Assembly: GCF_024298765.1 (NCBI RefSeq) | Contig: NZ_CP101210.1 | Source: Escherichia coli | GTDB lineage: Bacteria > Pseudomonadota > Gammaproteobacteria > Enterobacterales > Enterobacteriaceae | Length of the DNA: 64,000 bases | Direction: 5' to 3' (one strand) | Shown: piece by piece, positions 1 to 22,959 of the stretch | How the letters are laid out: every line of letters begins with the position of its first letter | Position numbering within the stretch: position 1 is the stretch's first letter | Notes under the pieces: model-generated | What the model was told of the DNA's origin: nothing | Seen by the model: the letters and a program-made list of their open reading frames with translations, nothing else | Database searches by the model: none | Translations under genes and position numbers: made by a program

Positions 1-1710
1 CCGTTGCTGCTGTGCGAATTTATCCGCCTGCTGCGCCAGCGCGTTCAGGCGCTCCTGATACGTAACCTTGTCGCCAAGTGCAGCCAGCTGGCGTTTGTAC
101 TCCAGCGTCTCATCTTTATGCGCCAGCAGGGATTTCTCCTGTGCAGACAGCTGGCGACGTTGCGCCGCCTCCTCCAGTACCGCGAACTGACTCTCCGCCT
201 TCCACAAATCCCGGCGCTGCTGGCTGATTTTCTCATTTGCTCCGGCATGCCTCTCCAGCGTCCGGAGTTCAGCCTGAAGCGTCAGCAGGGCAGCATGAGC
301 ACTGTCTTCCTGACGATCGCCCGCAGACACCTTCACGCCGGACTGTTTCGGCTTTTTCAGCGTCGCTTCATAGTCCTTTTTCGCCGCCGCCATCAGCGTG
401 TTGTAATCTGCCTGCAGAATTTTCCCGTCCTTCAGTGCCTTGTTCAGTTCTTCCTGACGGGCGGTATATTTCTCCAGCGGCGTCTGCAGCCGTTCGTAAG
501 CCTTCTGCGCCTCTTCGGTATATTTCAGCCGTGACGCTTCAGTATCGCTCTGCTGCTGCGCATTTGTGTCCTGTTGACTCTGCTGTTCAGCCTTCTTTCT
601 CGCGGCTTCAAGCGCAAGACGGGCCTTTTCACGATCATCCCAGTAACGCGCCCGCGCTTCATCGTTAACAAAATAATCATCCTTGCGCAGACTCCAGATG
701 TCGTCCGCTTTCTTAAACGCAGCCTCTGCCTTAATCAGCATCTCCTGCGCGGTATCAGGACGACCAATATCCAGCACCGCATCCCACATGGATTTGAATG
801 CCCGCGCTGTCCTGTCTGCCCAGGTCTCCAGCGTACCCATGTTCTCTTTCAGGCGGCGGGTCTGGTCATCAAACCCTTTCGTCGCGGCCTCGTTCGCCGC
901 CTGCAATGCCCCGGCTTCATCGCCGGAACGCTGCAACTGAGCAACATACGCAATCTGCTCCGCCGTCACGTTATGGAACTGGCGTGCCATCGCCGTCAAC
1001 CCCGACGTCGGGTCTGTGGTCAGCTTCCCGAAGGCTTCAGCGACCTTGTCCACCTCCACACCGGATGCAGAGGAGAAACGCGCCACACTCTGGCTGATGG
1101 ACGCAATCTGAGCCTCACCGCTTACTCCCGCCTTAACCAGTGCGCTGAGTGACTCGCTGGTCTGGTTAAACGTCAGCCCTGCCACCTGCCCGGCTCTGGA
1201 CAGGACCAGCATGCGATCTGCCGTCAGACCCGACTGATTGCCGGAAAGGACCAGCGTTTTGTTGAAATCGGACAGGGTTGAGTTGCCCTGATACCAGGCA
1301 TACGCCAGCGCACCGGTCGCCACCGCCAGCGAGGTGGCCCCCACCATCGGCAGGTTGATCGCACCGGCAAGCCCCCTGAACATGGGGATCATCCCGCCGA
1401 AGGAGTCCTTAACCTGCCCCCCCTGTTGCAGCAGGATCAGCCACGGACTTTGCCCGCCTGCAAGCTGCGTGGCCACGTCGGTGAACTGTGCAGGCAGCAT
1501 ACGCATGGCGGCTTTATACTGTCCGACGGAAATCCCCGCTTTCTGTGCAGCCAGCGCCTGCCGGTTCATTGACTGTTCAACGACTGCCGCTGTTTTTTTC
1601 GCATCACTTTCCGTACCGGAAAAATGACGCCTGACTCTGGCCATCTGCTCGTCAAATCTGGCCGCATCCAGACTTAAATCAACGACCAGATCGCCTACCG
1701 GTTCAGCCAT
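1..1710 (-). CDS. H: tail tape measure protein H, N-terminal part (gene continues past window start)
   Basis: Minus-strand frame open from ATG near 1710 (MAEPVGDLVVDLSLD...) to the window edge; absent from ORF track because no stop in window; lies downstream of G-T as in lambda. Confidence 0.8.
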   Translation of the reverse strand, partial: MAEPVGDLVVDLSLDAARFDEQMARVRRHFSGTESDAKKTAAVVEQSMNRQALAAQKAGISVGQYKAAMRMLPAQFTDVATQLAGGQSPWLILLQQGGQVKDSFGGMIPMFRGLAGAINLPMVGATSLAVATGALAYAWYQGNSTLSDFNKTLVLSGNQSGLTADRMLVLSRAGQVAGLTFNQTSESLSALVKAGVSGEAQIASISQSVARFSSASGVEVDKVAEAFGKLTTDPTSGLTAMARQFHNVTAEQIAYVAQLQRSGDEAGALQAANEAATKGFDDQTRRLKENMGTLETWADRTARAFKSMWDAVLDIGRPDTAQEMLIKAEAAFKKADDIWSLRKDDYFVNDEARARYWDDREKARLALEAARKKAEQQSQQDTNAQQQSDTEASRLKYTEEAQKAYERLQTPLEKYTARQEELNKALKDGKILQADYNTLMAAAKKDYEATLKKPKQSGVKVSAGDRQEDSAHAALLTLQAELRTLERHAGANEKISQQRRDLWKAESQFAVLEEAAQRRQLSAQEKSLLAHKDETLEYKRQLAALGDKVTYQERLNALAQQADKFAQQQR

Positions 1711-2137
1711 ACCGGACTCCTCCTGCGATCCCTTCTGATACTGTCATCAGCATTACGTCATCCTCCGTCATGTCCGCCACATCCGGGGAAGCGGGGATAA
1801 CTTCATTCCCGTCCGGGCCAAAACGAACGCCTCCGGCAAGCCCTGCCGCTTTCTGCATCAGCACATCATCTTCAGGCTCTTCGTCAGCCTCGCGCCGGTT
1901 CAGCAGACTGAAATCCAGCGGATGCATCTCCGGATCGCTGAAAAACAGGCTGAGCACGGTGTACGTCAGCCCGGAAAAGTGCATATCCAGCAGAACATCA
2001 TGAAAATAATGGGTACTGTAAAAGCGGTGCCAGTCGGCATACTCCGTGGATGACATCCCGGCAAGCATGGCGCGCCAGTCGGGTCGCCCCATCTCACGCG
2101 CCAGTTTCAGGGCAAAACTCAGCTCACCGTCGAACAC
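1703..2137 (-). CDS. T: tail assembly protein T (made as G-T fusion by -1 frameshift)
   Basis: ORF track 144 aa; overlaps 3' end of G in -1 frame; lambda gene order. Confidence 0.8.
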   Translation of the reverse strand: MFDGELSFALKLAREMGRPDWRAMLAGMSSTEYADWHRFYSTHYFHDVLLDMHFSGLTYTVLSLFFSDPEMHPLDFSLLNRREADEEPEDDVLMQKAAGLAGGVRFGPDGNEVIPASPDVADMTEDDVMLMTVSEGIAGGVRYG

Positions 2138-2541
2138 TTTCCCGCAGAAACAGGCACTGCAGGCCCGGCGTCCTCTGCCTGTTCAGGAGCATCATTCACC
2201 ACAAACTCATACATACCGGACAGCCGGTACACCACGTTTTCAGCATGAGAAATTGCCTCTGTGGGCCAGGTGGTAAGCACTTCCTGCTCAATCTGTTTAA
2301 CGGCTTCATTCATGGAAGGCAGCTTTGTCTTCTGCGGATGGTTATGCCACAGGGACATCGCTACCACAAAAGCACCGGTTCTGATGGCGTCTTCCACAGT
2401 AAACTTCCGGTTGCTGTCTGACTCCGCCTGTTCTGCCTGCCGTTTCATCAGGTCGAGATGCTCAATACGCTGCAGGGCTGACAGTTCAGAAAGCGTGACG
2501 GTCACACCGTTATGTTCAAATGATTCGGTTTTCAGGAACAT
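2119..2541 (-). CDS. G: tail assembly chaperone G
   Basis: 140 aa, MFLKTESFEHNGVTVTLSEL..., matches lambda gpG as recalled. Confidence 0.9.
   Translation of the reverse strand: MFLKTESFEHNGVTVTLSELSALQRIEHLDLMKRQAEQAESDSNRKFTVEDAIRTGAFVVAMSLWHNHPQKTKLPSMNEAVKQIEQEVLTTWPTEAISHAENVVYRLSGMYEFVVNDAPEQAEDAGPAVPVSAGKCSTVS
2137..2143 (-). other. programmed -1 frameshift slippery heptamer G GGA AAG (G-T fusion)
   Basis: Forward-strand ctttccc (reverse complement GGGAAAG) at the G/T overlap. Confidence 0.6.
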
Positions 2542-2556
2542 CGCTGACTCTCCGGA

Positions 2557-3297
2557 TTAACTGGCGGTGACGTTGATTTCTGCAACCGCAGCAAACTCAC
2601 CATTACCAGATACGACCGGAATGTTGACCTTGCCTGCAGCAACACCTTTCACGGTGATGGTCATACCACTGACCGACACGGTGGCTTTTGTTTTATCCGC
2701 AGACACCGCACGGAAGCTCTTGTCGGTTGCGCCATCCGGCTGGAATGCCACGGTCAGCGTGGTGCTCTGCCCTTTCACTACGGAAGCACTGGCGGGTGTC
2801 ACCGTCATGCCGGTCGTCGCCGTCACCGTGCTGCGATCTTCTGCCATCGACGGACGGCCCACATTGGTGACCTTCACCGTGCGGGTAATCACTTCCTTCG
2901 CCGTCACCGCCTTACCGATACTGCTGACCCAGCCACGGAACACATCGACCGTGCCGTTCGGGAAGCGGATTTTATAGGCACGGGTATCACCTTCATTAAA
3001 CCACGCCAGCAGCGCCTGCTGCCCCTGCTCTCCGGGCATCCACGCCAGCGTGAAGCTGGTATCTCCGGCAGATTTCTGCCCCTGCCCGGTCGCAGTCCAG
3101 TCTGCATCTTCATCATCGAGATAGCTGTCGTCATAGGACTCAGCGGTCAGTTCGCCGGGCGTCAGGTCTTTAACTTTTGCCAGACGCGACCAGTCAACGT
3201 CTGAAAGCGGGTTCGCATAAGGGTCACCGCTCCCCTTATAAACCCACAGGGTGGTTCCGGCACCTTTCACCGGTATTGCTGGATTTGGTACAGGCAT
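2557..3297 (-). CDS. V: major tail protein V
   Basis: ORF 2557..3327; internal start MPVPNP... gives 246 aa like lambda gpV; C-terminal Ig-like domain. Confidence 0.9.
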
Positions 3298-3304
3298 ATC
3301 GTCC

Positions 3305-3700
3305 TCACATTTCATAGGTAATGACATACGTCAGATCGGCAGAACTCCACAAGCCCGCATCATCGTCGCGCCGGTAGTCATAGCCACTGGCCACCATACT
3401 GGTGATCAAATCTGACAGTGCCGGGATATCGCTCATCACCGGATAAATCCGGGACTCCATCCACGCATCCAGCTCTGAATCCGGCACCTGAGCAGGCAGG
3501 AAAACTTCAATATGCAGCTCCGCCTGCCAGGTATCGCTGTCCAGCTCTTCGCCCGTGTATTCAGCGCCGGTGAGATAAACGGCAATTGCCGGAAAATCTT
3601 CCTCATCAAAAACAGCAGGGCGACCATCAAAAAACGTCGCCCCGGTGTCATGCTTCTCCAGTGCATCCAGTACGGCTGCACGGAGTTCAGTATGTTTCAT
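3305..3700 (-). CDS. U: tail terminator protein U
   Basis: 131 aa [16 protein letters not shown]..., lambda gpU. Confidence 0.9.
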
Positions 3701-4275
3701 CGCTTTATTACCATCCTCAGTTGATGCTGCAGCGCATAGCCCAGCTCTTTCGGAAGACGCTCACGCCGTATCCGCTCAATATTCTGTTTAAACGCCGTGG
3801 TCAGCGGCACCGCCATCGGGATTTTCACCACATCAATGGGGTAACGGTTTTTCCCGGCCACACGCTGCATGACATGCCAGCGGCCATTTTTCAGTTGCTG
3901 AATAAACGCGCCGGGAATACGACGGTTTCCCACCACAAGCACGCTGCCGCCACCTTTCAGGGCTGAACGCTGCCCCTTTTTACGACGCCTGCGTCGGGAC
4001 AGGACAATCCGCGCGTTACCCAGCTTTATTACGGGCAAATCCCCCCGGTTAACCTTGATTCTGGCCTGCGGATTTTTGACCGTGGCCCTTTTCAGCCAGG
4101 CCCTTTCCTTTACCAGTTTCCGGCGTACCTTTGTCTCACGGGCAACCTGTGACGCCGACTGCGATATCGCGGATGAAGCAACGCGGTTAATGGCCATTGC
4201 GGCGGCACCGGGCACCGCCGTTCTGCTGATACGGCTGAGGTTTTCAACGGCCTGCTCAAGACCTTTTATGGCCAT
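3697..4275 (-). CDS. Z: tail completion protein Z
   Basis: 192 aa MAIKGLEQAVENLSRIS..., lambda gpZ. Confidence 0.9.
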   Translation of the reverse strand: MAIKGLEQAVENLSRISRTAVPGAAAMAINRVASSAISQSASQVARETKVRRKLVKERAWLKRATVKNPQARIKVNRGDLPVIKLGNARIVLSRRRRRKKGQRSALKGGGSVLVVGNRRIPGAFIQQLKNGRWHVMQRVAGKNRYPIDVVKIPMAVPLTTAFKQNIERIRRERLPKELGYALQHQLRMVIKR

Positions 4276-4286
4276 ACATCCCCCTT

Positions 4287-4640
4287 TCAGCGGCGACGGT
4301 TAACGGCAGGCGGTACGCCCCGCCCAAGCCAGAGATGACAGCTTCCGCCATCATCCGGCGAAATCCGGTCTATCCAGAAGTTTTCCTCACCGATGGTCAG
4401 CGTGTCGCCGCGCCGCAGCTGCCGCACATCATCAGTCCGGACAAACAGGGACGGGCTGGAGCCTTCAACGCGTACGCCCTGTCCGGCATAGCTGATATTT
4501 TCAGGGTCATCAAAAACACCACGTATTACTGCGCCGGACTGCTCACCGGATGTCATGGTGGCTGACGTTCCCATGTACCCGCGTATCGTTTCATCGGCGC
4601 GGGCAATGGCAGCATCGAACAGGTTATCGAAATCAGCCAC
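4287..4640 (-). CDS. FII: head-tail joining protein FII
   Basis: 117 aa MADFDNLFDAAIARADETIRGYMG..., lambda gpFII. Confidence 0.9.
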   Translation of the reverse strand: MADFDNLFDAAIARADETIRGYMGTSATMTSGEQSGAVIRGVFDDPENISYAGQGVRVEGSSPSLFVRTDDVRQLRRGDTLTIGEENFWIDRISPDDGGSCHLWLGRGVPPAVNRRR

Positions 4641-4651
4641 AGCGCCTCCCG

Positions 4652-5047
4652 TTATTGCATTCTGGCCAGGCCGCGCTCTGTCATTTCAGCTGCCACACCG
4701 GCAGAGACACGGAACGCCGTTCCCGGCAGCACAAATGCCACAGCCTCATCCCGCGTGGCGTGAAGTGCATCAGTATGCAGCGTCACCAGTGCCACAACCG
4801 TGACCAGATCAGCCGTATCAGTCACGGTATCCGGCTGCGCTGATACCACCTCATTTTCATGTCCGGTCAGCGCATTTTCCGGGCTGACAGATGTGTCCTG
4901 ACCGGCAGCGTCATCCGTGTCATCAAGCTCCTCTTCCAGCTCTGCCACACGGAGCGCCAGTTCTTCTTTCGTCCCCGTCAGGCTGACATCACGGTTCAGT
5001 TGTTCACCCAGCGAGCGGAGACGGGCAATCAGTTCATCTTTCGTCAT
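4652..5047 (-). CDS. FI: DNA packaging protein FI
   Basis: ORF 4652..5086; internal start MTKDELIARLRSLGEQ... gives ~131 aa like lambda gpFI. Confidence 0.85.
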   Translation of the reverse strand: MTKDELIARLRSLGEQLNRDVSLTGTKEELALRVAELEEELDDTDDAAGQDTSVSPENALTGHENEVVSAQPDTVTDTADLVTVVALVTLHTDALHATRDEAVAFVLPGTAFRVSAGVAAEMTERGLARMQ

Positions 5048-5088
5048 GGACTCCTCCACAGAGAAACAATGGCCCCGAAGGGCCATGA

Positions 5089-5868
5089 TTACGCCAGTTG
5101 TACGGACACGAACTCATCAGGGTCAGCCAGCAGCATCAGCGGTGCTGACTGAATCATGGTGAACTCACGCGCCGGATCGCCGGTGGTCACCCAGTTTTTC
5201 GGGTAACGGGCAGAGGCGTTAATGCCTTCGCGCTGTGCGTCCGCATCCTGAATGCAGCCATAGGTGCGCAGACCGCGTGCATGAGTGTTACCCAGCACCA
5301 TCGTGTTGTCCGGCAGGAAGTTCTTTTTGACGCCGTTTTCCACGTACTGTCCGGAATACACGACGATGGCCACATCGCCATACATCCCCTTATAGGACAC
5401 CGCTTTACCCAGGTCTTTCACCGCTGTCTCCAGCTCGGAATGAGAGCCGCGACGGGTATCCAGCTTCTCCTTGACGGCGTTGAAGGAACGGAACAGCGCC
5501 CAGCCTTTCGGATCAAACACGATGATATTCACCACGCCGCTGGCGTTCAGCGCGTAGGCTTCGATATCGTCGGTCGGGTCATACGTGGACTTGTCACGCT
5601 TGCTCCACTCCGTGCCGCCGGACTGCGTGATGTTGTTCGCCGCACTGCGGCCCATATCCACCTCAACCGGATCGAAGGCTTCACCGGTCATGGTGTATTT
5701 GCCCTTGAGCACGGCAGAAACTGCCTGCATCTCTTCGACCTGAGCAATGGCCAGCTCTTCGTCACGCATGTTCTGCAGGATGATGCGACGGCGGCGGTAA
5801 GCCGGGTCCGCCAGATTCTGCGGATCTTCATCCGGCAGGCGACGCAGGGTCATCTGCGGATTCACTTC
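5089..5868 (-). pseudogene. E: major capsid protein E, C-terminal ~258 codons, separated from its 5' part by a ~10.9 kb insertion
   Basis: ORF 5089..5865 begins EVNPQMTLRRLPDE..., i.e. lambda gpE from about residue 91; no start codon of its own. Confidence 0.9.
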
Positions 5869-5869
5869 A

Positions 5870-5879
5870 TGCTTGGGTT
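5870..5879. repeat. left junction direct repeat (att core copy) TGCTTGGGTT
   Basis: Identical 10-mer at 16754..16763; context atgcttgggtta vs gtgcttgggttt. Confidence 0.8.
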
Positions 5880-5955
5880 ACATGAGTCAAATATGAAAGG
5901 ATGTGAATGATTTGATTACGTTTTAGCTATAGAATTGAAATGGAAAATCCTTGAA

Positions 5956-5976
5956 TGCAATACAACGTGCAATACA
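5956..5976. repeat. GCAATACA direct repeats near left end (candidate arm-type integrase sites)
   Basis: tgcaatacaacgtgcaatacatgg; the same motif recurs at the right end. Confidence 0.45.
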
Positions 5977-6013
5977 TGGATGAAAACCATCACTCATTTA
6001 ACAAGAGGAATCT

Positions 6014-6919
6014 ATGCGCTCACCCAACAGAATGCATGAACGCTCAACATTTTATAAGTATATGTCGTTGAATACCGCGAAGATTGTTCTTGATTCATGC
6101 AGCCTTAGATGGAGTTCTCCGGTCCTATTTAATGACCCTTTTGATGTTCCAAGAGAAGTTATGCCTGGTATTAACGAAATTAATATTGGCAAAGCTTTAG
6201 CCCGCAAGTTAATAGCGGAGTTGATTACCCCCAGAGAAGACATACAAAATTTAAACCCTAGAATTAGAACAATGCTAAGTGATTTCCAAAAGTCATTTCC
6301 TTTAGGCATACCCGCAGGATTAATTGAAAGATTTCAAGAAATGGTAAACATTCCACCAGTTGGGATTGGCGCTCCTGCGGCAATACAAGAAATGAAAGAT
6401 ATCTGGCGAGGAATGCTTAATAACAGAAGGATTTTGTGTTTATCTGAGAGCCCTATAATCACTCCTATGTGGAATCACTATGCCGATAAATATAAAGGTA
6501 TAGTTATCGAATTTGATTGTGTAGACTTTCTGGATAGCGCTTGGTTAATAGCCAAACCTATGAAATACACAGATGAAATGCCTCTAACTCACACTGCTGA
6601 AGGGATGGCCGAGTTGCTTTTCATGCCAGACAATAAGTCAATTGAATATATCAATAATGAGATAATATTCATAAAAACAGAAGAATGGGCATATGAAAGA
6701 GAGTGGAGAATTTCAACCTACGCTAGGCCAAATAGCACTGGTCAATATAGCGACTTAAAATTTCACCCTTTTGAGTTAAAATCTGTAATACTTGGTCCTC
6801 TTTTTGATGCCAGCGAGTTCGATGAAGTCGCATCACTAGTTAAAATGTATCCAAGAGCGAAATTATTTAAAAGTTCATTTGGGAACGACAGAAAAATATC
6901 CATAGTACCACTACCTTAA
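6014..6919 (+). CDS. DUF2971-like hypothetical protein, AT-rich cargo
   Basis: 301 aa; motifs FYKY, LFNDPFD, EWAYEREWR recalled as DUF2971-like; codon usage visibly more AT-rich than neighbours; hairpin terminator follows. Confidence 0.6.
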   Translation: MRSPNRMHERSTFYKYMSLNTAKIVLDSCSLRWSSPVLFNDPFDVPREVMPGINEINIGKALARKLIAELITPREDIQNLNPRIRTMLSDFQKSFPLGIPAGLIERFQEMVNIPPVGIGAPAAIQEMKDIWRGMLNNRRILCLSESPIITPMWNHYADKYKGIVIEFDCVDFLDSAWLIAKPMKYTDEMPLTHTAEGMAELLFMPDNKSIEYINNEIIFIKTEEWAYEREWRISTYARPNSTGQYSDLKFHPFELKSVILGPLFDASEFDEVASLVKMYPRAKLFKSSFGNDRKISIVPLP

Positions 6920-7025
6920 AAGGTCAAATGCTTTTGACAAATAAAATCTATCGCCAGTTTTACTGGCGACTTTTAAGCAACAAAGAACCACCTAAGCACT
7001 CTTCCTACCTATGGTTTCATTTGTT

Positions 7026-7577
7026 TTAACTTCGCTGATTATCCTTGATATACCTTTCAGCCATATCTGGAATGTTATCTGAGATCTGGTAAGCTCGAAT
7101 AAATGCTTTACTGACCTCCATCTTAATGAAGTCCTGATACCGTTTTTCCATGCCAGGAAACTGTCGACAGATCGCAAGTGGAAGACTATCAATGATTGCT
7201 CCAACTTCCCCAGTTAATTTCGACAAGGCATAAGTCGCAAATGCAGTGTCAATTACCTCACCTGTTTCGCTGGCATTCTTCAGTTCCTGTGCGTCGGCCT
7301 GCGCACGCGTAAGTCGATGGCGTTCGTACTCAATAGTCCCTGGCTGGAGATCTGTCTCGCTGGCCTGCCGCAGTTCTTCAACTTCCCGGCGCAGCTTTTC
7401 GTTCTCAATTTCAGCATCCCTTTCGGCATACCATTTTATGACGGCGGCAGAGTCATAAAGCACCTCATTACCCTTGCCACCGCCTCGCAGAACGGGCATT
7501 CCCTGTTCCTGCCAGTTCTGAATGGTACGGATACTCGCACCGAAAATGTCAGCCAGCTGCTTTTTGTTGACTTCCAT
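7026..7577 (-). CDS. terminase small subunit Nu1-like; N-terminal ~100 aa identical to the prophage Nu1, C-terminal half divergent
   Basis: 183 aa; MEVNKKQLADIFGASIRTIQNWQEQG... identical to ORF 22397..22942 over the DNA-binding domain, then about half-identical. Confidence 0.85.
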   Translation of the reverse strand: MEVNKKQLADIFGASIRTIQNWQEQGMPVLRGGGKGNEVLYDSAAVIKWYAERDAEIENEKLRREVEELRQASETDLQPGTIEYERHRLTRAQADAQELKNASETGEVIDTAFATYALSKLTGEVGAIIDSLPLAICRQFPGMEKRYQDFIKMEVSKAFIRAYQISDNIPDMAERYIKDNQRS

Positions 7578-7599
7578 TGTTCATTCCACGGACAAAAAC

Positions 7600-7790
7600 A
7601 GAGAAAGGAAACGACAGAGGCCAAAAAGCTCGCTTTCAGCACCTGTCGTTTCCTTTCTTTTCAGGGGGTATTTTAAATAAAAACATTAAGTTACGACGAA
7701 GAAGAACGGAAACGCCTTAAACCGGAAAATTTTCATAAATAGCGAAAATCCGCGCGCCTGACGCCCCGTAGCCTGTCAGATCGCCGGAAA
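7600..7790 (-). other. cos-like site of the element: cosB conserved, cosN divergent
   Basis: Aligns base for base with prophage cos at ~22960..23150; the 12-nt cohesive-end sequence differs at 5 positions (aggtcgccgccc vs cgcctgacgccc on the + strand). Confidence 0.7.
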
Positions 7791-7822
7791 GGACCCGCCA
7801 GCCAGAGCGGGCCCTAATTTCA

Positions 7823-8206
7823 TCAACCAATCAGCTTATAGCGACCATCCCGTGCATTGCGGCGTACACGCTCAATCTTGAGGCATAGCGCCGCATCTGG
7901 CTTTTTTGGGACAGGTACGCGGCAATATTCAGAAGCGCGAGGAATATTATTTATCCAGTCGATCACTTCACTTAAATACCAGGCCTTACGCCCTTCCGTA
8001 ACCTGCACACGCTCCGGGAACTCTCCACTAGCCTCAAGGTTTAGCAGTGTACGCCGACTCAGGGTTGTAATTTCCATCACCTGATTCATATCAACAAGGC
8101 GCTCGCTTAAACACATTTTGTCAGCGATAGCTTTTAATTCCTCTACAGCTGGATTCGGGTACATCATTTCGGCAATTGGCTTAAGGTCATTGTAATCATT
8201 CTGCAT
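7823..8206 (-). CDS. AlpA-family DNA-binding protein with N-terminal extension
   Basis: 127 aa; C-terminal part (ITTLSRRTLLNLEASGEFPERVQVTEGRKAWYLSEVIDWI) resembles AlpA/excisionase-type wHTH. Confidence 0.6.
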   Translation of the reverse strand: MQNDYNDLKPIAEMMYPNPAVEELKAIADKMCLSERLVDMNQVMEITTLSRRTLLNLEASGEFPERVQVTEGRKAWYLSEVIDWINNIPRASEYCRVPVPKKPDAALCLKIERVRRNARDGRYKLIG

Positions 8207-8217
8207 TGTATCCCCCT

Positions 8218-8559
8218 TTACACACGAGCCAGCGGCTGAACAGAAATACCTGAGCCAACAAACGCTGCAATCTTTACTGACAGTTCTTTTACAGACTCAG
8301 GCCAGTTCAGAGCATCAACATTTAAGACACCTGTCTTATAGACCTGAGCCTGTGTTTTTTTCGCGGTGTCGATTTGTACAGCGGAAACATAAACCGCTTT
8401 ACCTACGCTCGAACCATCCCATACCACCAGTGCACCTGTTGCATCTTCCTGCATCAGTGGCGTAAATGCAGGAATTACCCCTTTATTAGCTGAAAATATC
8501 CCCAGCGTAGTCACCAGTGCTTCAGTGCCAGCCATGAGTTCAGTGTAATGAGTAGCCAT
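8218..8559 (-). CDS. head decoration protein, gpD family
   Basis: 113 aa; ...VVWDGSSVGKAVYVSAV...FVGSGISVQ parallels lambda gpD ...[17 protein letters not shown]...FAGTAISIV. Confidence 0.65.
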   Translation of the reverse strand: MATHYTELMAGTEALVTTLGIFSANKGVIPAFTPLMQEDATGALVVWDGSSVGKAVYVSAVQIDTAKKTQAQVYKTGVLNVDALNWPESVKELSVKIAAFVGSGISVQPLARV

Positions 8560-8568
8560 TGCTCCCCC

Positions 8569-9609
8569 TTAGCCAATGCGAACGGTAACAAAACGATTGA
8601 TGCGGGCCGGTATTGGCTGTGGTGCTGAATGTGTCTGCACATATTCAATAGCCGGATCACCAGGCACAATATAGTTTTTCGGTGCAAGTTCGGCTTTAGT
8701 CAGCCCCATTCGGATTAGCTCCGGATCCTGAATACCGCCATAGGCGACAATCCCCTGAAGAGCCGTATTGCCAAGCACCATCAAATCAGGATCAAGGAAA
8801 TGTTTTTCAGTTCCGTCCTCGTCGGTATAACGCCCGCTGTATACAACAATCGCAACATCGCCCATATACCCTTTAAAACTCACCGAATCACCAAGGTCTT
8901 TAAGGGCCGTTTCCAGTTCGGAATTAGAGCCACGACGGGTATCCAGAGCCTCTTTTATCGCTCTGAATGAACGGTATTTCTTCCATACATTACCGCCCAT
9001 AATGATGATATTAGTGACGCCCTCACTAAATTCTGCGTAGCTCTCAATATCATCATTTGGATCAAAAGTTTCTTTATCCTTACCTGACCACTCAGCACCG
9101 CCAGACTGAGTGATGATATTTTGTGGTTTAATATTCCAGTCCAGCTCATAACGTTCAATACCATCGCCCTCAATGATATTTTTCCCCGTTGTGATTGCCT
9201 GAACGGCAAGCCATTCAATACGTGCACGAATAGATTTAGCCTGATTTACAATCGCCTGTTTAACTTTAATATTACGCGCTCCAAAAGCATTGTATTGCTC
9301 AGGTGATACACCAGCAGGGCGCACAGCTAACTTATTTGGATCAATGCTGCTTTTCGGCTTCATATAGCCTGGACGAATTGTTTTTGATTCGTACCCTTCG
9401 TCACGTGAAACTTTACTACCCACCATAGGAGAACAAAACGCTGCAATTGGGATATTTGGATCGTCGATTGTATCAAGAATAATATCGCGCGATTCAAACA
9501 TTACCGAGCGAGTAAAAAACAAACTGGTAAACAACGCATTTAGTTGTTTTTGTACATCTACAGCATTAACCACCTGTACAAGCTGGGTAGGCGAATATAA
9601 ATCAACCAT
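8569..9609 (-). CDS. major capsid protein, gpE family, divergent paralog of prophage E
   Basis: ORF 8569..9783; likely start MVDLYSPTQL... after AAGAGG RBS; conserved blocks TQSGGAEWSGKDKETFDPNDDIESYA and TRRGSNSELETALKDLG match gpE. Confidence 0.8.
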   Translation of the reverse strand: MVDLYSPTQLVQVVNAVDVQKQLNALFTSLFFTRSVMFESRDIILDTIDDPNIPIAAFCSPMVGSKVSRDEGYESKTIRPGYMKPKSSIDPNKLAVRPAGVSPEQYNAFGARNIKVKQAIVNQAKSIRARIEWLAVQAITTGKNIIEGDGIERYELDWNIKPQNIITQSGGAEWSGKDKETFDPNDDIESYAEFSEGVTNIIIMGGNVWKKYRSFRAIKEALDTRRGSNSELETALKDLGDSVSFKGYMGDVAIVVYSGRYTDEDGTEKHFLDPDLMVLGNTALQGIVAYGGIQDPELIRMGLTKAELAPKNYIVPGDPAIEYVQTHSAPQPIPARINRFVTVRIG

Positions 9610-9826
9610 ACGCATCCTCTTTGCATTCATTAAAAATAATTGTGGATATATGCTATCACCGATATTTGTCATGCGAATACATGCAACCGAGTGCAATGTT
9701 GTATAAAGTTTTGGGATAACAACTTCAGCGCGGATAATTAGTGTTAATATCTTAACTCCCTTTGGTCGGGATTTATGTAGCATGCCGGAAAATTTATTTT
9801 TTTCCGGCCTTTTTTATTGGCAATAT

Positions 9827-10276
9827 TTAAAACGGAATATCATCTCCCCATTGCTCATTATCTCCCACTGGTGGATGGCTTCCTTGCTGATCTGCCTGTT
9901 GTTTTGCTCTGTTCAGTGCGTCAGTAGCCTGACCCTGTTGACCTTTTTTGCCGCCCGGTCGCACCGTTCGCGCACTGATTACGCTGTCTGCGATAACCTG
10001 CCAGCCCTGCCGCGTTTCACCGTTCTGTCCAGTCCACTGGCTCACCTGCATATTACCCGCCACGCTCAGGAGTTCGCCTTTGTGATGCTTTGCCAGCGCG
10101 TCGGCTTGTCTGCCAAACGCCAGGACAGATAACCACATCGTCGCCGTTCCGTCATCTGCCTGGCTGCATGGCAAAGATACCGCCATCCGTGCCAGTGTCA
10201 TGGGTGTTCCCTTGCTGGTATGTTTTACCTGTGGGTCGTCCACCAGCCGCCCGTAAGCTGCTATTTGCGCCGTCAT
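9827..10276 (-). CDS. SSB-like single-stranded DNA-binding protein
   Basis: 149 aa; OB-fold-like N-terminus and C-terminal acidic tail ending DDIPF, the SSB hallmark. Confidence 0.6.
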   Translation of the reverse strand: MTAQIAAYGRLVDDPQVKHTSKGTPMTLARMAVSLPCSQADDGTATMWLSVLAFGRQADALAKHHKGELLSVAGNMQVSQWTGQNGETRQGWQVIADSVISARTVRPGGKKGQQGQATDALNRAKQQADQQGSHPPVGDNEQWGDDIPF

Positions 10277-10287
10277 GCTGCCTGCTC

Positions 10288-10530
10288 TCAGGACTTAATA
10301 TTGATGGTTGTCACTTCCTCCGCTTCGGCAATCTCCCGTTCGGTCAGCGTGGCAAAGTTTGCAGCCGCCGTTGTCATGAATGCGCTTATCAGTTCGGGAT
10401 GTGCTTTCGCGTATCCTTCCCCGGCGTTGCGGTCTATTGCCTTAATCGCCACCCTTAGCCAGTGTTCAGCCATATCAAGGGCGCGGTAATGTGGCTTTAT
10501 ATGTTTGTTCAGTTTTCCTGATGTGTGCAT
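10288..10530 (-). CDS. hypothetical protein
   Basis: 80-aa ORF downstream of the iteron region, same strand as the replication genes. Confidence 0.4.
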   Translation of the reverse strand: MHTSGKLNKHIKPHYRALDMAEHWLRVAIKAIDRNAGEGYAKAHPELISAFMTTAAANFATLTEREIAEAEEVTTINIKS

Positions 10531-10569
10531 TTTTATTTTTACCCCCTCGTTTAAAAAGTTTTTTGTGCA

Positions 10570-10805
10570 CCACCACCTTGTCTACCTTGTCTACCTGATT
10601 AGTTATCAGGCCAGTAATGGCGCGGGTTTCAGGGAGGTAGACAGCCCCAAATAGCTGTCTACCTCATCTCTACCCGTCTCCTTACCTGTCTACAAAAATG
10701 GGTAGATAAGGTAGATAACAGGTAGACAGTGAAAAATAGTTATCTACCTGCATTAATGCATTGAAATAAAAGTATTTTATTTCAGTCAGGTAGACAAGGT
10801 AGATA
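10570..10805. repeat. iteron array GGTAGAYA (11 or more copies, both orientations): candidate replication origin
   Basis: ttgtctaccttgtctacc, ggtagacag, ctgtctacc, ggtagataaggtagataacaggtagacag, ttatctacc, ggtagacaaggtagataa; immediately downstream of the primase-helicase gene. Confidence 0.75.
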
Positions 10806-10819
10806 ACCATTGCCATTTT

Positions 10820-12571
10820 TTATAAAAACGCATCGCAATCATCAGTAGTCGTTGCGTTGGTCTGCGTGACTCCCTTAACTTTTCGCGTAATATATTCATA
10901 TCCGTAAACTTTCGCCGCTGACCTCATAGCCTTTCCGAACTCATTCACGCTCAAACATTTCCCCTTTCCTGTATATGCCATGAAGGCCATATAGACACGG
11001 TAAAGGCTGTTTCTGGTCGTGTACTTCACGGTGTCACCACCACCGCCCATCATTAGCCCACGAGCTTCCTCCAGAAACTCCAGCGCCGCGCAAAGCTCAA
11101 CAACCGGATCCGTTTGCTGCTTTATTGCCAGAGCTTCATCACCGTCACGCTGTTCCAGTAATAAAGCCCGTGCCTTTTCAGGGTCAGCAAAATTAGCCAG
11201 CAAGCGGCGGATAATTACGGGGATTTCTGCCGCTATCTTTTCCGGTAATTCCTTGTCTTTTTCGTCCTCCCTTACAATGTTGTCGAACCGGAAAATCACC
11301 CGACGGCGTGACACACCTCCGGCCCGTTCGGTAAAGATCATCGGGTCGTTATTGGTTGCCAGTACCACCGCCCTTATTATCGTCGTGAATCGCTTCTCAT
11401 ATTTCGGGTTAATTTCAACGGGATCGCCTCCCGTGATTTTCTTGATGCCCGTGCCTTCCCCCGTATATTTCGGCTGATCGGCAAGGACGATAAGACGACT
11501 CCCGACAACCTGCGCACGCCCTCCTGCATCATCGAGTGATGTCATCTCTGCGCTTACGGTGTTCTGTTTGCCAGCAAGCAGGGTGGCAATATGGGTAAAT
11601 GTACTCTTACCGCTTCCCCCGTCTCCGGTGGCCTCAATGAACATCTGCCAGTCGTACCGGTTCGCCATAATCATGTACAGCGCGGCACATATACGCATCA
11701 TCTTGCGCGGGTCTTTTCCGGCTGCGTGCTCAAGCCATTTATGAAAGTTTGGCGCGTTATCGCGGATGTTCTCCCCTGGTGCTGGTGGCGTGTACTCAAT
11801 GCCGTTGTGCGTGGTGATCCAGTTCTCCGGCGTGTGCGGGGAAAATTCCCCCGTTTTCAGGTCAAGCGCACCATTGGCGAACGGCAGCAAATCGCCGGAC
11901 GGCTCGCCCATTGGTTCGGCAATAACTTTTAACGCTTCAACGGCGTTATTGATCACGCGTTTGCTGAAAGTGGCCCTGTGCTCTGAATAGATCGCCACCA
12001 TTTCGCGGCTCAGCTCCATTGTGCTGATCGGACACCATACCCCGCCGCGCCATACGTGAACGATTTCACTTTCCGGATGCACACAAACGCCATCAAAGCG
12101 CTCGGCAAGCAGCTGCGCGCGCTCACTGTCTGCCATCTGTGAAAGTTGCGCCTTTTGCTTCGTCGGAAGATTAAGCACCAGGCTTTCCCCACGCTCGCAT
12201 TCCTCTTTGAGTCGCGGCAACTGGTCGGATAAATCCACTGGGCTGATGTCAGTAATCCCCGCGTATTCGTGTACGGTCTTCACTCCAGCCACAGCCAGTA
12301 ACGTAACAATCTGCGTCATGCTGTGCTCTGTGATATGTCCTGCGCGGTAAACACGCACACACTGACGATCTTCATCAATGATCCGGTAATCGGTGATGTT
12401 TTTCAGTTGCTCATCAGCCAACACGACAGGCGGCACATCGTCGGCGGCAATATGTTTACCCGCCCATTCCTGCCACTCTTTCGCATGGCTCCACGCATCA
12501 CTACCTGCAAAGATGATTATCTCTGTCAGTCTGTCGCGTGGCTGTTTTTTTAAGTTCGGTGCCAGTTTCAT
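10820..12571 (-). CDS. primase-helicase (P4 alpha / D5-type replication protein)
   Basis: 583 aa; Walker A GDGGSGKST in the C-terminal half; domain layout as in satellite and plasmid primase-helicases. Confidence 0.75.
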   Translation of the reverse strand: MKLAPNLKKQPRDRLTEIIIFAGSDAWSHAKEWQEWAGKHIAADDVPPVVLADEQLKNITDYRIIDEDRQCVRVYRAGHITEHSMTQIVTLLAVAGVKTVHEYAGITDISPVDLSDQLPRLKEECERGESLVLNLPTKQKAQLSQMADSERAQLLAERFDGVCVHPESEIVHVWRGGVWCPISTMELSREMVAIYSEHRATFSKRVINNAVEALKVIAEPMGEPSGDLLPFANGALDLKTGEFSPHTPENWITTHNGIEYTPPAPGENIRDNAPNFHKWLEHAAGKDPRKMMRICAALYMIMANRYDWQMFIEATGDGGSGKSTFTHIATLLAGKQNTVSAEMTSLDDAGGRAQVVGSRLIVLADQPKYTGEGTGIKKITGGDPVEINPKYEKRFTTIIRAVVLATNNDPMIFTERAGGVSRRRVIFRFDNIVREDEKDKELPEKIAAEIPVIIRRLLANFADPEKARALLLEQRDGDEALAIKQQTDPVVELCAALEFLEEARGLMMGGGGDTVKYTTRNSLYRVYMAFMAYTGKGKCLSVNEFGKAMRSAAKVYGYEYITRKVKGVTQTNATTTDDCDAFL

Positions 12572-12867
12572 TTTTTGCCCCTGAATGCGTTAATCATGCT
12601 TTTCATTTTCTGGATGTTTCCCCGCGCTTTTTCCCTGCTGATGGGCTTACTGCGGGGTGCGGCATATACCAGGGAAAAATCACGCCGGAACTGATAAACA
12701 GGCATCACGCAGTCATAGCTATACCCCTCACGACGGTAAGTGATGCGCCGTTCTGCCACGCCTTTAATCGTTACCGTGCCGCCGTATTTATCGCGGTAAA
12801 TATCGCCGTTCATAAATTCAGGCCGAGCGGGGCCGCTGGCAATAAAGCCAGAATTTTTCATTTCCAT
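12568..12867 (-). CDS. hypothetical protein
   Basis: 99-aa ORF, abuts the primase-helicase start. Confidence 0.4.
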   Translation of the reverse strand: MEMKNSGFIASGPARPEFMNGDIYRDKYGGTVTIKGVAERRITYRREGYSYDCVMPVYQFRRDFSLVYAAPRSKPISREKARGNIQKMKSMINAFRGKK

Positions 12868-12884
12868 ATTATTTATTCCTCGAC

Positions 12885-13106
12885 TTAACTCGACTTATTT
12901 GATAGCTGGGCACTATTTATTGCGTCATTGAGTTTTTCTGCTGCTTCATCAATAAGTGACAACAGGCCATAAGCAATATTTGCATCTTCATTGTCATTTA
13001 TGCAATCAAGCCACATATTTAATATTGCTTTTGCTGAATTATTTAAAGTTAATGAACTTTCTGCACATGCTAACAATTTAAAAAAGACTTCCCGTTCTGT
13101 ATTCAT
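12885..13106 (-). CDS. hypothetical protein
   Basis: 73-aa ORF in a tightly packed small-gene operon. Confidence 0.4.
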   Translation of the reverse strand: MNTEREVFFKLLACAESSLTLNNSAKAILNMWLDCINDNEDANIAYGLLSLIDEAAEKLNDAINSAQLSNKSS

Positions 13107-13298
13107 TTAATCCCCCACCAGCTTACTTTCTTCCTCAATCAAAAAACTAGCGACACTTCCCGAAAGACGCGCCAGTAGGCTCGCCAGTGCGGATATATCA
13201 GCATCTGTAATTTTGTTCGGGTATACCTCAAGAAGGCGGCAAATAATTTCTGTCTGGTGCGCACGTTCAGCGGCTTCGTGTAATGTGATTTCCTGCAT
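13107..13298 (-). CDS. hypothetical protein
   Basis: 63-aa ORF; its stop abuts the next ORF. Confidence 0.4.
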   Translation of the reverse strand: MQEITLHEAAERAHQTEIICRLLEVYPNKITDADISALASLLARLSGSVASFLIEEESKLVGD

Positions 13299-13483
13299 TA
13301 ATGCACCTCTTTTAATTCATACACTGCTGAAATAATGACTTGTGATAAGCCATATTCTGATGATTCGCTTCTCACCGCAGCAATAGCCGTCTGAACATTA
13401 ACAGCCTTCACATTCTGAGCGATACCAATTGTGTGGCCTATTGGGTTAACAGCTCGGGCAAATACACGGAAGGTTTTAAGCAT
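13298..13483 (-). CDS. hypothetical protein
   Basis: 61-aa ORF, first gene of the leftward operon. Confidence 0.4.
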   Translation of the reverse strand: MLKTFRVFARAVNPIGHTIGIAQNVKAVNVQTAIAAVRSESSEYGLSQVIISAVYELKEVH

Positions 13484-13863
13484 GACTCACTCCCTGGCGG
13501 ATTTTTGCAGCGAATACAGCAACACAACCGGACGGGCAACGGCTACGCGCTTCGCGTTCCGTCCAGGCGGTTACGTGGATGATTTGAGATTCTCCGGCAC
13601 TCAGTGCCAGAAAACGCCACACAAAGGCCGTTTGTGTGTGTACAAGGTGTGGTATATGATTTACAGCAACCATAACGGCTCCTAGTTTACGTTGTTGGTT
13701 AGACGCCCCGTATGTGTTCCCAGCACTGCGGGGCGTTGCTCTTTGTATTTCAACAATCCTTTCGGTGTGTTTCATGTTATGAGCGCATGAAACACACGTC
13801 AAGGCTTTTTGTATTTCTTTTTTTGTGTATACTGAAACACACCGATGATTAGGAGTTTCAGAA

Positions 13864-14169
13864 ATGGCAACGGCTAACAAAAACGCAAAATCACAACTGA
13901 CAACTGTCAGAGTCCCACTAGATGTTATGCAAGGGATGGAATCCGTTAAGCTGGACGGTGAAAGCAATGCCGGATTTATCGTAACCGCCATGCGCGGTGA
14001 AATCGCCCGCCGCCAGGCAGAAGGAAGCGGAGAAAATCCCCTCGTGTCTTCACTGGATGCCTTAGCTAAGGTCGAACAAATCGGCATCAAGGCAGCGGAG
14101 GAAATCGGGCAACTCGTAGCCGTCGCTCGTGAAGAACTCCAGCGGCGTAAAGCCAAAGAATCTGAATAA
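13864..14169 (+). CDS. putative ribbon-helix-helix transcriptional regulator
   Basis: 101 aa; AGGAG RBS; TVRVPLDVMQGMESV...NAGFIVTAMRGEI fits a beta-strand plus two helices; divergent from the small-gene operon. Confidence 0.5.
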   Translation: MATANKNAKSQLTTVRVPLDVMQGMESVKLDGESNAGFIVTAMRGEIARRQAEGSGENPLVSSLDALAKVEQIGIKAAEEIGQLVAVAREELQRRKAKESE

Positions 14170-14519
14170 TTAGTATCAGCGCCGTGATGTGAGTAACTAC
14201 GGCGCATTGCTATGTAAATACTGGCAATAAACAGAAAAGGTAGTTCTACTCCGAATAATTTTATCTGACACTACTCCTGAACTAACATGCGCTTATCTTA
14301 CAGGATATAAATATAAATCCATAAAATCACGATTAAATAAAGTCGCTCCAAACATAAACCACACCCAACGCTTAACAAGATAGCAACAAACAGGTAAATA
14401 ACTTGCAGAAATATTTATCGCAAGGATTATCATTATTAATGACAAATCACTTTACCAAGTCATTCCCCTCTCTTATCATAAAGAGAAAGTAATAAATAAG
14501 TTAAGGGAGTTAGAATGCT

Positions 14520-15056
14520 ATGAATCTAAAAAAAATAGCCACAAACACAAAAAACAAGATAACAGAAACATTTAATAAACTTATATTAGAGGCATCTAAA
14601 ACCCCCACACAAGATGAAATTAAAATACTTGAGAGAAGGAGTAAGAAGTTTAATTACTCCTTTTTCTCATACGCAGTCACAGGAGCTATAATAGTTTTTT
14701 GCTCTCAACCATTAATTAAATACGCAAACCCAATACTTATTTTATTGAGTGGTCTGTTACTGTCTATCATCATTATCATTCTCAGAATGATTTATATTTC
14801 ACAAGCGAATGCATCATGGACAACCAAAAAACGCTCACATGTACTAGTTCATTTTCTTTCTGCATGTTTCATAGCATCAACATTGACGTTGCTATATCAG
14901 GCTTACGATAATAACATCACACACAAATTGTACTGTAAAAATATACAACAACTTATTGAAAAAAGGATAAAAACAGAAAAAAACATCAGCATATTCAGTG
15001 GGATGCAATGCACCCCGGTATATGATTACTCTTTATTTGGATTTAATCTCTTATAA
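14520..15056 (+). CDS. hypothetical membrane protein, AT-rich cargo
   Basis: 178 aa; three hydrophobic segments (AVTGAIIVFCSQPLI, ILILLSGLLLSIIIIIL, VLVHFLSACFIASTLTLL); GGGAG RBS; AT-rich. Confidence 0.55.
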   Translation: MNLKKIATNTKNKITETFNKLILEASKTPTQDEIKILERRSKKFNYSFFSYAVTGAIIVFCSQPLIKYANPILILLSGLLLSIIIIILRMIYISQANASWTTKKRSHVLVHFLSACFIASTLTLLYQAYDNNITHKLYCKNIQQLIEKRIKTEKNISIFSGMQCTPVYDYSLFGFNLL

Positions 15057-15067
15057 AGAATGTTATT

Positions 15068-15101
15068 ACTGATTTGAGTACAAATTCTCAAATCAGTAAT
15101 T
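15068..15101. terminator. perfect 13-bp inverted repeat hairpin between convergent genes
   Basis: ttactgatttgag-N8-ctcaaatcagtaa. Confidence 0.5.
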
Positions 15102-15125
15102 CATAATATTTTATTCTGAGATAAT

Positions 15126-15353
15126 TTAAACTACCCACTCACCTCGAATCCATGCCTGCACTTCTGAAAGACGATATGCAACAGCAGTGGAACCAATCTT
15201 GATCCGCTTAGGAAATTTTCCTTCCTTCTCCAGCTTCCAGCGTGTGCTGTTCGCAAGAGTGGTTAGCTCCCGACATTCTTTCTCACGGATCATTCGGTCA
15301 ATGTTAGGAATGTACTCCAGACCCTTTTTATCAACAATTGCCATTTTTTTCAT
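15126..15353 (-). CDS. alpA: AlpA-family regulator/excisionase-like protein
   Basis: ORF 15126..15362; ...LTTLANSTRWKLEKEGKFPKRIKIGSTAVAYRLSEVQAWI typical of AlpA; directly follows int. Confidence 0.65.
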   Translation of the reverse strand: MKKMAIVDKKGLEYIPNIDRMIREKECRELTTLANSTRWKLEKEGKFPKRIKIGSTAVAYRLSEVQAWIRGEWVV

Positions 15354-15354
15354 G

Positions 15355-16590
15355 TTAACCAACCTTTTGTTTGAGGATTGTCACTTTTGAATCAGCACCT
15401 GCGATGCTATTGAGATATGTAGTCCAGAGTTCCAGAGCATCCAGTTTTTTAGCCATAAACTTACTCCGGTTGTAAACACCTGCCACGCCAGGTAGCGCAT
15501 GGCCTAACAGTTGTTCTACTACATAAAATTCAACACCGAGATCACTTAGATGAGTAGATAGCGTTCTTCTAAGGTCGTGTAGTGACCATTGTTTTTCATG
15601 GCCCAAACGTTTACCGATTTTCCCCCCAATCTTGCTTACGCTTTCTCTAATTCGCAGACTTCCCAGCACATAACCAGTATGTTTTGTCTCTTCGTGAACA
15701 TCCGTTACCCACTGTCGTAGAATTTCAGGTACTGGTCTGACGATTTCAACACCAGTTTTTGAGTGATCTTTTGGTACAGTCCAAACCCAACTTTCGAGAT
15801 CCCATTCGCTCCATTCTGATAATCGGGCTTCACTCATTCGACATCCAAATACTGTACAAAGCACAAACATTTTTCGCGTGTATTCAGACATTAGTTTTAA
15901 ATCAGGCTCGACAAAAATTGCCTTCCAGAGCTGGCCGAGTTCGGCTTCATCCAGAACCCGATCCCGCTTACCTGCAATCTGCCCCACATCACTCATGCGC
16001 AAATCCTTTAAAGCATCACACGTCGCGTACTGGCGTACCCGACAAAAACGAAGAGCTAATTTAGTGTCAGAAAAAACATACGCCGCCATAACTGGTGCAT
16101 TACGTTTAATTCGGTCAAAACAGTCCAGCCATTCATATAGGTGAGTGTCATTTACGGGCAAATGACCGATATAGGGAAAGATATGCTTTCGAAATCTGCC
16201 AAGCGTTACAGCATGAGTTTTACGACGCACCTTACAGTAATTTTCATACCAGTAATTTAGTGCATCCTCCACTGTAACTGGCTTTAAGCGTTCTTCAGCC
16301 TGAATCTTAATCTGGATACGCGGATCACGTTTGTCAGCCAACCAACCACGGCACTCGTCGCGCTTTTCCCTTGCCTGTTTGAGTGACATATCAGGATATT
16401 TACCCAACGTTAGCCAGACCGGAGCAGCCCGGCCACCTGCTAACCTGTAGAAGAAAACAAAGCTCACAGCCCCTTTAGTACTCACACGAATAGAAAGCCC
16501 CTTTCCATCAGCAATGGTGATCTGCTTTTCTCTGGGTTTCCCCAGATATCCTTTAAGCGCTTTGTCGCTCAGTTTGTTCTCGCCAGCCAT
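15355..16590 (-). CDS. int: tyrosine integrase, P4-like
   Basis: ORF 15355..16641; probable start MAGENKLSDKALKG...; C-terminal catalytic region with HDLRRT and GH motifs. Confidence 0.85.
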   Translation of the reverse strand: MAGENKLSDKALKGYLGKPREKQITIADGKGLSIRVSTKGAVSFVFFYRLAGGRAAPVWLTLGKYPDMSLKQAREKRDECRGWLADKRDPRIQIKIQAEERLKPVTVEDALNYWYENYCKVRRKTHAVTLGRFRKHIFPYIGHLPVNDTHLYEWLDCFDRIKRNAPVMAAYVFSDTKLALRFCRVRQYATCDALKDLRMSDVGQIAGKRDRVLDEAELGQLWKAIFVEPDLKLMSEYTRKMFVLCTVFGCRMSEARLSEWSEWDLESWVWTVPKDHSKTGVEIVRPVPEILRQWVTDVHEETKHTGYVLGSLRIRESVSKIGGKIGKRLGHEKQWSLHDLRRTLSTHLSDLGVEFYVVEQLLGHALPGVAGVYNRSKFMAKKLDALELWTTYLNSIAGADSKVTILKQKVG

Positions 16591-16605
16591 TTTTAGCCCC
16601 AAAAA

Positions 16606-22942: not shown

Positions 22943-22959
22943 TGTTCATTCCACGGCCA

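Follow-up and report, generated by a model that had tools for sequence, protein, structure and literature searches.

A DUF2971 gene with a predicted ADP-ribosyltransferase fold as accessory cargo and candidate anti-phage defence gene of a helper-embedded satellite in Escherichia coli

The DNA analysed here is a stretch of 64,000 nucleotides (the window) from the Escherichia coli contig NZ_CP101210.1, in which a phage satellite of 10.9 kb (5870-16763) lies within a lambdoid prophage that flanks it on both sides (1-5869 and 16764 to approximately 23200). Near the left end of this satellite, at 6014-6919, is a gene for a DUF2971 protein of 301 amino acids, which adds one more member to an already recognised class of candidate defence genes, and the element that carries it is likewise of a known type. 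An earlier note on this region, made from the sequence alone, had described an AT-rich accessory gene at the end of a satellite, and the open reading frame (ORF) was found exactly where the note had placed it, on the plus strand. This is the sole sizeable gene antisense to the late-module genes of the satellite; its satellite neighbours, which encode TerS, AlpA, the decoration and capsid homologues, Ssb, the primase and the integrase, are all on the minus strand. The G+C content (GC) of the ORF is 0.376 (0.331 at third codon positions, GC3), compared with 0.447 for the whole satellite, 0.474 for the AlpA gene, 0.484 for the TerS gene and 0.584 for the prophage capsid fragment at its left, and similarly low values (0.36-0.38) are common to all orthologues of the gene. 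Both the reversed orientation and the AT-rich composition claimed in the note were thus borne out.

The assignment to the DUF2971 family, which the note had based on three sequence motifs, was confirmed by profile searches. The protein matches Pfam DUF2971 (PF11185) with an independent E-value of 2e-9 (score 39.1; residues 152-233 on model positions 1-89 of 89), as do 61 of the 61 homologues in our alignment (36-88% identity to the query), and RefSeq names it a DUF2971 domain-containing protein. The PADLOC search that the note had proposed gave a match across nearly the whole protein to the family PDC-S31 (model PDLC04990, E-value 1.8e-32, residues 9-289 on profile positions 5-246 of 259), with additional matches to four other models of PDC-S31; we take the PDC label to denote a candidate defence family. 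In addition, the protein matches PHROG 1762 (E-value 7e-69), a family of unassigned function, while a search of the 301 residues against NCBIfam returned no family. The motifs named in the note are all present (F13-Y-K-Y16, L38-FNDPFD44 and E224-WAYEREWR232), and many of their residues belong to the invariant set of the 61-sequence alignment, which comprises W33, S34, S35, P36, N40, D41, P42, D44, P46 and R47, and further downstream Y156, Y160, W225, E228, E230, W231 and R232. A published analysis describes DUF2971, which spans about 6000 species, as an ADP-ribosyltransferase (ART)-like family near DarT and AbiGi, with a strictly conserved tyrosine, an ExE motif, a poorly conserved histidine, and large helical inserts between strands 1 and 2 and strands 4 and 5 (PMC12522546). 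Y156 and E228-x-E230 of the E. coli protein fit this description, and one of our searches yielded 479 relatives of the protein.

The AlphaFold 2 (AF2) model of the protein has a mean predicted local distance difference test score (pLDDT) of 94.8 and a predicted template modelling score (pTM) of 0.86, and the ART fold, defined by a split beta-sheet NAD+-binding core, is assigned to it. The only meaningful structural neighbours of the model are ADP-ribosyltransferases, with the nucleic-acid-acting enzymes Tpt1/KptA and DarT in the first ranks. The ExE motif begins a beta strand (residues 230-236), and two large helical insertions are predicted at residues ~55-137 and 195-228. The candidate catalytic residues given in Table 1 were assigned by motif. 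The fold call agrees with two independent publications (PMC12522546, PMC11381338), and we consider it likely that the protein is an ART-fold enzyme. A nucleic acid is tentatively predicted as its target, because Tpt1 and DarT rank above the protein-targeting toxins, which is the sole hint in this direction.

The E. coli protein is annotated too short in the public record. The RefSeq call, made by the Prokaryotic Genome Annotation Pipeline (PGAP), begins at Met50 (window position 6161) and gives 252 amino acids (WP_001117802.1; locus L001, 12312-13070), while the NCBI records for the Enterobacter and Klebsiella proteins give 301. Homologues of about 300 residues align over 98-100% of the 301-residue query, and the first 49 residues are conserved at the protein level in all four orthologues examined and contain ten invariant positions. 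The shorter call also drops residues 12-17 and 30-34, each of which is predicted to form a core strand. Given the length of the homologues and the invariant N-terminus, the RefSeq start is very probably wrong and too late, and a clone of the annotated ORF, devoid of the 49 N-terminal residues with their invariant core, would probably be inactive. The AAGAGG of the Shine-Dalgarno-like sequence upstream of the longer ORF (Table 1) is kept in the Enterobacter and Klebsiella orthologues.

The satellite is delimited by the 10-mer TGCTTGGGTT, which occurs in two copies only (the attL and attR cores in Table 1) and places the gene at the left end of the element, as the note had stated. In silico removal of one copy together with the intervening DNA yields an intact ORF of 341 amino acids for a lambda-E-like major capsid protein, and the attL junction is conserved in related elements. 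The insert carries genes for an integrase, AlpA-type regulators, a primase, Ssb, a capsid homologue, a decoration homologue and TerS, and its core genes are all co-oriented with the helper late operon; E. coli A37 is annotated with the same gene arrangement. The element is therefore not merely a satellite, as the note had called it, but a helper-embedded phage-inducible chromosomal island (PICI) inside the major capsid gene of a prophage, a configuration that has already been published (PMC10111431). We accordingly rejected the capsid-gene integration as a novelty, since it is known as the capE group of helper-embedded PICIs (PMC10111431). The described example, 11capE of E. coli NRG857c, was reported by Tommasini, Mageeney and Williams in 2023 with a 10-bp identity block and 201 instances at the site (PMC10111431). 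The present element matches 11capE as an AlpA/primase/capsid PICI of ~11 kb with a 10-bp identity block in a lambda-E-like capsid gene and an orientation shared with the helper late genes. In contrast, 11capE is stated to be without terS and no DUF2971 cargo is discussed for it (PMC10111431), whereas the element studied here has a Nu1-chimeric TerS and the DUF2971 cassette.

Between attL and the start codon lies a pair of direct repeats, TGCAATACA (Table 1). This sequence occurs three times in the window, always at the satellite ends (5956, 5968 and 16617, the last within a right-end region at 16606-16625). The repeats are invariant across five related elements irrespective of their cargo, and just past them the sequence similarity between elements of different cargo type stops. 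From this pattern they are probably arm-type sites of the integrase that mark the inner edge of attL, and the DUF2971 cassette would extend roughly over ~5977-6975. Integrase bound to the left pair, which is situated between attL and the start codon of the gene, could affect how the gene is expressed.

We used a survey of 5426 complete E. coli genomes to follow the distribution of the cassette. The AlpA-decoration-capsid backbone, counted at a coverage of at least 80%, is present in approximately 365 of these genomes, and the DUF2971 cassette with both of its junctions was found in 29-31 of the backbone genomes, always adjoining the split capsid gene. Elements at the same att site fill the slot with other genes, including those for a hypothetical protein of 438 residues (locus L002), a hypothetical protein of 311 residues (L012), or a protein of 93 residues together with a different TerS (L003). 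The gene thus lies inside the att boundaries, does not belong to the conserved backbone, and is present in some related elements and absent from others, which are the properties by which PICI cargo is recognised. Judged by this distribution, and in agreement with the note, the gene is accessory cargo, and the slot that it fills, at the end of the satellite away from the integrase, is variable.

Capsid-gene PICIs of Enterobacter sichuanensis and Klebsiella aerogenes carry orthologues of the gene (88% and 72% identity, respectively) at the corresponding position and on the corresponding strand, and the slot and its orientation are common to such PICIs of three genera. In comparison with the Enterobacter orthologue, the ratio of nonsynonymous to synonymous substitution rates (dN/dS) is 0.14, and in comparison with the Klebsiella one it is 0.07-0.08, with dS saturated in the more distant pairs; by these estimates the gene is under purifying selection. 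More distant homologues are found in a variety of contexts. One in a chromosomal island of E. hormaechei adjoins a HEPN_AbiV gene, one in a lambdoid prophage of Pantoea adjoins genes for a SIR2_2 protein of 951 residues and an HD protein, and others reside in an integrase-bearing island at proAB and in a P2-like remnant. Homologues were detected by tblastn in 364 plasmids, where those with 26-30% identity have uninformative contexts. The same type of search against phage genomes gave six distant partial matches only (24-28% identity), with close relatives essentially absent, and for this reason we rejected the possibility that the gene is a common phage moron.

The only experimentally validated DUF2971 member that we found is Aristaios, encoded by the Lactococcus plasmid gene pUCCL641_199 (Grafakou et al., Nucleic Acids Research (NAR) 2024, PMC11381338). 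This single-gene system of 316 amino acids provides abortive-type phage resistance in lactococci, its authors also found an ART fold (PMC11381338), and it acts by blocking both the transcription and the protein production of the phage (PMC13064643, PMC12967558). The E. coli gene is likewise a single gene for about 300 residues (301 compared with 316) with a DUF2971 domain and a predicted ART fold on a mobile element; it differs in that Aristaios is a Gram-positive plasmid gene.

Other ARTs are related to the E. coli protein by fold or by function. DarT, the single-stranded DNA ADP-ribosyltransferase of the DarTG system, is compact and lacks the two large helical insertions of the DUF2971 protein. 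No gene for a DarG macrodomain antitoxin was found near the DUF2971 gene, whose neighbours are the capsid pseudogene and the TerS gene, and the DarT (DUF4433) models of Pfam and PADLOC gave no HMMER-level match. In view of both results we rejected membership in DarTG, and consider the two proteins to be related in fold only. Tpt1/KptA, the RNA 2'-phosphotransferase, has 13% identity to the DUF2971 protein, from which it differs in serving housekeeping or repair and in not being carried by mobile elements; its catalytic tetrad is Arg-His-Arg-Arg. A functional analogue is CmdT of the CmdTAC system, an E. coli anti-phage ART that acts on mRNA and blocks phage protein synthesis (PMC11618068). However, CmdT has an antitoxin and a SecB-like chaperone as working partners, neither of which is present here, and we detected no homology to CmdT and no match to its PADLOC model. 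Both DarT and CmdT defend their hosts by modifying DNA or mRNA (PMC11381338; PMC11618068).

Based on these data, we propose with a probability of roughly 0.55 that the gene encodes a stand-alone NAD+-dependent ART-like enzyme for an abortive-infection type of anti-phage defence, carried as an accessory cassette of a PICI; an anti-phage role as such is favoured to the same slight degree. The defence function that the note had suggested from context is strengthened by the PDC-S31 match, by Aristaios, and by the AbiV and SIR2_2 plus HD neighbours of distant homologues, and it falls short of proof. In the proposed scheme, the lysogen would transcribe the gene independently, on the other strand from the late genes of satellite and helper, and the enzyme would be held inactive, perhaps by its two helical insertions. 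Infection by a foreign phage would switch the enzyme on, and it would then ADP-ribosylate a target needed for phage gene expression, presumably a nucleic acid in the first place and otherwise a protein of transcription or translation. The infection would be aborted, as reported for Aristaios, to the benefit of the host and hence of the resident prophage-satellite composite.

Several points weigh against this proposal. Aristaios is linked to the E. coli protein by Pfam membership and fold alone, and a tblastn search of plasmids with the E. coli protein gave no lactococcal match among the best matches listed. PDC-S31 is a computational candidate family only, for which we found no mention in the literature, and we found no experiment on this protein or its close relatives. 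Foldseek searches against the PDB and against BFVD (viral) gave nothing significant, the best PDB E-value being 0.16 and that of DarT (7omv) 0.17, and a profile search of PDB sequences returned only noise (E-values of 0.1 or worse) and thus no solved relative. The Foldseek failure is probably due to the two long helical insertions of the model; with the lack of a solved relative, it keeps the fold call at a moderate level. Activity is not guaranteed, since K15 occupies the position of the motif-I histidine of many family members, with R32 as a possible alternative. An ART toxin without an antitoxin needs a means of self-control. A scan for consensus promoters between attL and the ATG detected none, and a weak candidate picked by eye (ATGATT-17 nt-TAGAAT at ~5907-5935) was not relied on. 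Finally, the alternative cargos of 438, 311 and 93 residues and two Klebsiella proteins have no Pfam or PADLOC assignment. Because the alternative cargos are without recognisable function, the slot is not shown to be a recognisable defence hotspot, and we keep the claim to a variable slot.

The location of the gene at the packaging end of the PICI, beside TerS, a cos-like region and the capsid genes, would also suit a weapon in the satellite's own life cycle, where the ART modifies a component of the helper or of a competitor phage, or the host machinery, in favour of satellite packaging, which would be interference rather than host immunity. Interference functions are known in PICIs (PMC6092414), and in both E. 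coli and Enterobacter the cassette is accompanied by a chimeric TerS of the Nu1 type. We nevertheless regard this explanation as unlikely. The PICI cycle genes are transcribed under AlpA and helper late control in the direction antisense to the gene (PMC10111431), so that it would not be co-induced with them; moreover, most elements with the same backbone are without it, the neighbouring genes differ in Klebsiella, and homologues are not confined to satellites, being found in chromosomal islands, prophages and plasmids as well. The variable neighbourhood among genera likewise argues against a toxin for addiction or post-segregational killing that would stabilise the element as selfish maintenance with no anti-phage role. 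Such a toxin is made improbable by the lack of an antitoxin candidate, as we found no second conserved ORF, macrodomain gene or known RNA within 5880-7025, and Rfam gave no match over the whole satellite, hence no known antitoxin RNA or P4-type immunity RNA.

Two further explanations concern the target and the activity of the enzyme. In a survey of Legionella, effectors were predicted to make up ~18% of DUF2971 proteins (PMC12522546), virulence-related accessory genes are frequent in PICIs (PMC6092414), and the family is represented among the PHROGs, with distant homologues encoded by phages. These observations would fit an effector directed at the host or at eukaryotes (a secreted virulence ART), or a host-takeover enzyme of the T4 Alt/Mod type that would reprogramme a freshly infected cell on behalf of an incoming satellite or phage. 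Yet the neighbourhood contains no hint of a secretion system, the nearest neighbours in structure are enzymes with nucleic-acid substrates and not the classic protein-targeting exotoxins, and the contexts of the homologues are defence-like, which together leave this option quite improbable. The least probable explanation is a catalytically dead ART-like scaffold, acting as a sensor or binding pseudo-enzyme, or a decaying passenger gene. The replacement of the motif-I histidine by lysine and the absence of detectable sequence similarity to any solved ART speak in its favour, but they are opposed by strong purifying selection and by the tyrosine, the ExE motif and the long N-terminal motif, which are invariant down to 36% identity; in addition, the histidine is reported to be poorly conserved throughout the family (PMC12522546).

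The layout of the locus also suggests a more specific version of the defence proposal, which we consider distinctly unlikely, namely that the enzyme is a nucleic-acid ART with a Tpt1-like chemistry new to immunity, whose substrate would be a phosphate end of RNA or DNA, or else a base, and whose activity would be gated by the helper-embedded arrangement. Since the gene is antisense to the antiterminated late transcript of the helper and its upstream region overlaps the presumed integrase arm sites, the defence would be silenced only when the resident helper-satellite composite goes lytic, and would stay armed against foreign phages. The late operon of a helper is expected to read through an embedded PICI (PMC10111431), and speculatively the defence could be shut off in cis when the resident helper transcribes its late genes.

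Should the proposal of an abortive-infection ART prove true, the gene would be the first enterobacterial DUF2971 ADP-ribosyltransferase shown in phage defence, and the Aristaios finding would extend from lactococci to a very large family. It would also make E. coli a convenient system in which to search for the trigger of DUF2971 proteins and for the target that they ADP-ribosylate, and would add defence cargo to the helper-embedded PICIs, whose accessory content is undescribed so far. The positions of the gene, its candidate sites and the boundaries of its carrier are collected in Table 1.

Table 1. Features of the DUF2971 cassette and the satellite boundaries (window positions)
Feature	Position	Strand	Basis and remarks
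DUF2971 / PDC-S31 gene, 301 amino acids	6014-6919	+	ORF and family matches; predicted ADP-ribosyltransferase fold
Candidate catalytic residues Y156; E228 and E230	6479-6481; 6695-6703	+	
Shine-Dalgarno-like AAGAGGA	6003-6009	+	4 nt 5' of the ATG at 6014; read from sequence
GC-rich hairpin between the convergent DUF2971 and TerS genes	6950-6970		terminator scan and folding; probable bidirectional terminator
attL core TGCTTGGGTT	5870-5879		left satellite boundary in the prophage E-like major capsid gene
attR core TGCTTGGGTT	16754-16763		right satellite boundary, adjoins the integrase gene
Direct repeats TGCAATACA	5956-5964 and 5968-5976	+	~38 nt 5' of the DUF2971 start codon

The GC-rich hairpin, ATCGCCAGT-TTT-ACTGGCGAC, lies about 32 nt 3' of the stop codon. 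The folding energy of this region on the plus strand beats that of all 200 shuffled sequences (200/200, z -4.98). However, the terminator scan calls the hairpin on the minus strand only, where its tail is AGATTTTATT and where it would serve the convergent TerS gene; on the plus strand it goes uncalled because the tail has only four T. The stem is kept alongside the DUF2971 gene in Enterobacter and Klebsiella, and the Klebsiella orthologue has a different downstream neighbour, yet retains the stem, followed there by TTTTT on the plus strand. By this comparison the cassette carries its own hairpin, which in E. coli most likely acts in both directions as a shared terminator. The note had credited the gene with a terminator of its own, and this stands insofar as the stem travels with the gene; given the call on the minus strand only, it is better described as a shared bidirectional terminator.

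The convergent TerS gene (7026-7577, minus strand) is of mixed origin. A stretch of 558 bp in the satellite (7240-7797) is 95% identical to the cos/Nu1 region of the resident prophage (22605-23162); it comprises a cos-like region and the first 102 codons of the satellite TerS, and over 4000 E. coli genomes contain matches to it in nohA/nohD/Nu1. Residues 103-183 are of the satellite type, and we call TerS chimeric on account of this Nu1-like N-terminal and satellite-type C-terminal part. Residues 3-54 of TerS, a helix-turn-helix, match the PADLOC model mad1 (mads_1) with an E-value of 2.7e-11, which most likely reflects a common DNA-binding domain and not a defence role.

The AlpA-decoration-capsid module is also found elsewhere, in a prophage portal gene (locus L013, E. 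coli LH09-a), beside clpS (L014) and beside smrA-dgcM (L015 and L016), and some of these elements have a RepA-type helicase in place of the primase. In E. coli FDAARGOS_1296 (L003, 12094-16557), a related capsid-gene PICI has its primase gene interrupted by an IS66-family element, and for this reason that copy is probably immobilised. Within the satellite studied here, a second AT-rich antisense ORF (14520-15056, plus strand; GC 0.311) near the integrase end encodes 178 amino acids with long hydrophobic stretches; it has no PADLOC match, and may be another cargo gene in a dynamic zone. Just 3' of the primase gene, palindromic and iteron-like repeats (AGGTAGACAG...CTGTCTACCT, GGTAGAYAAGGTAGATAAC) at 10635-10807 probably mark the replication origin of the satellite.
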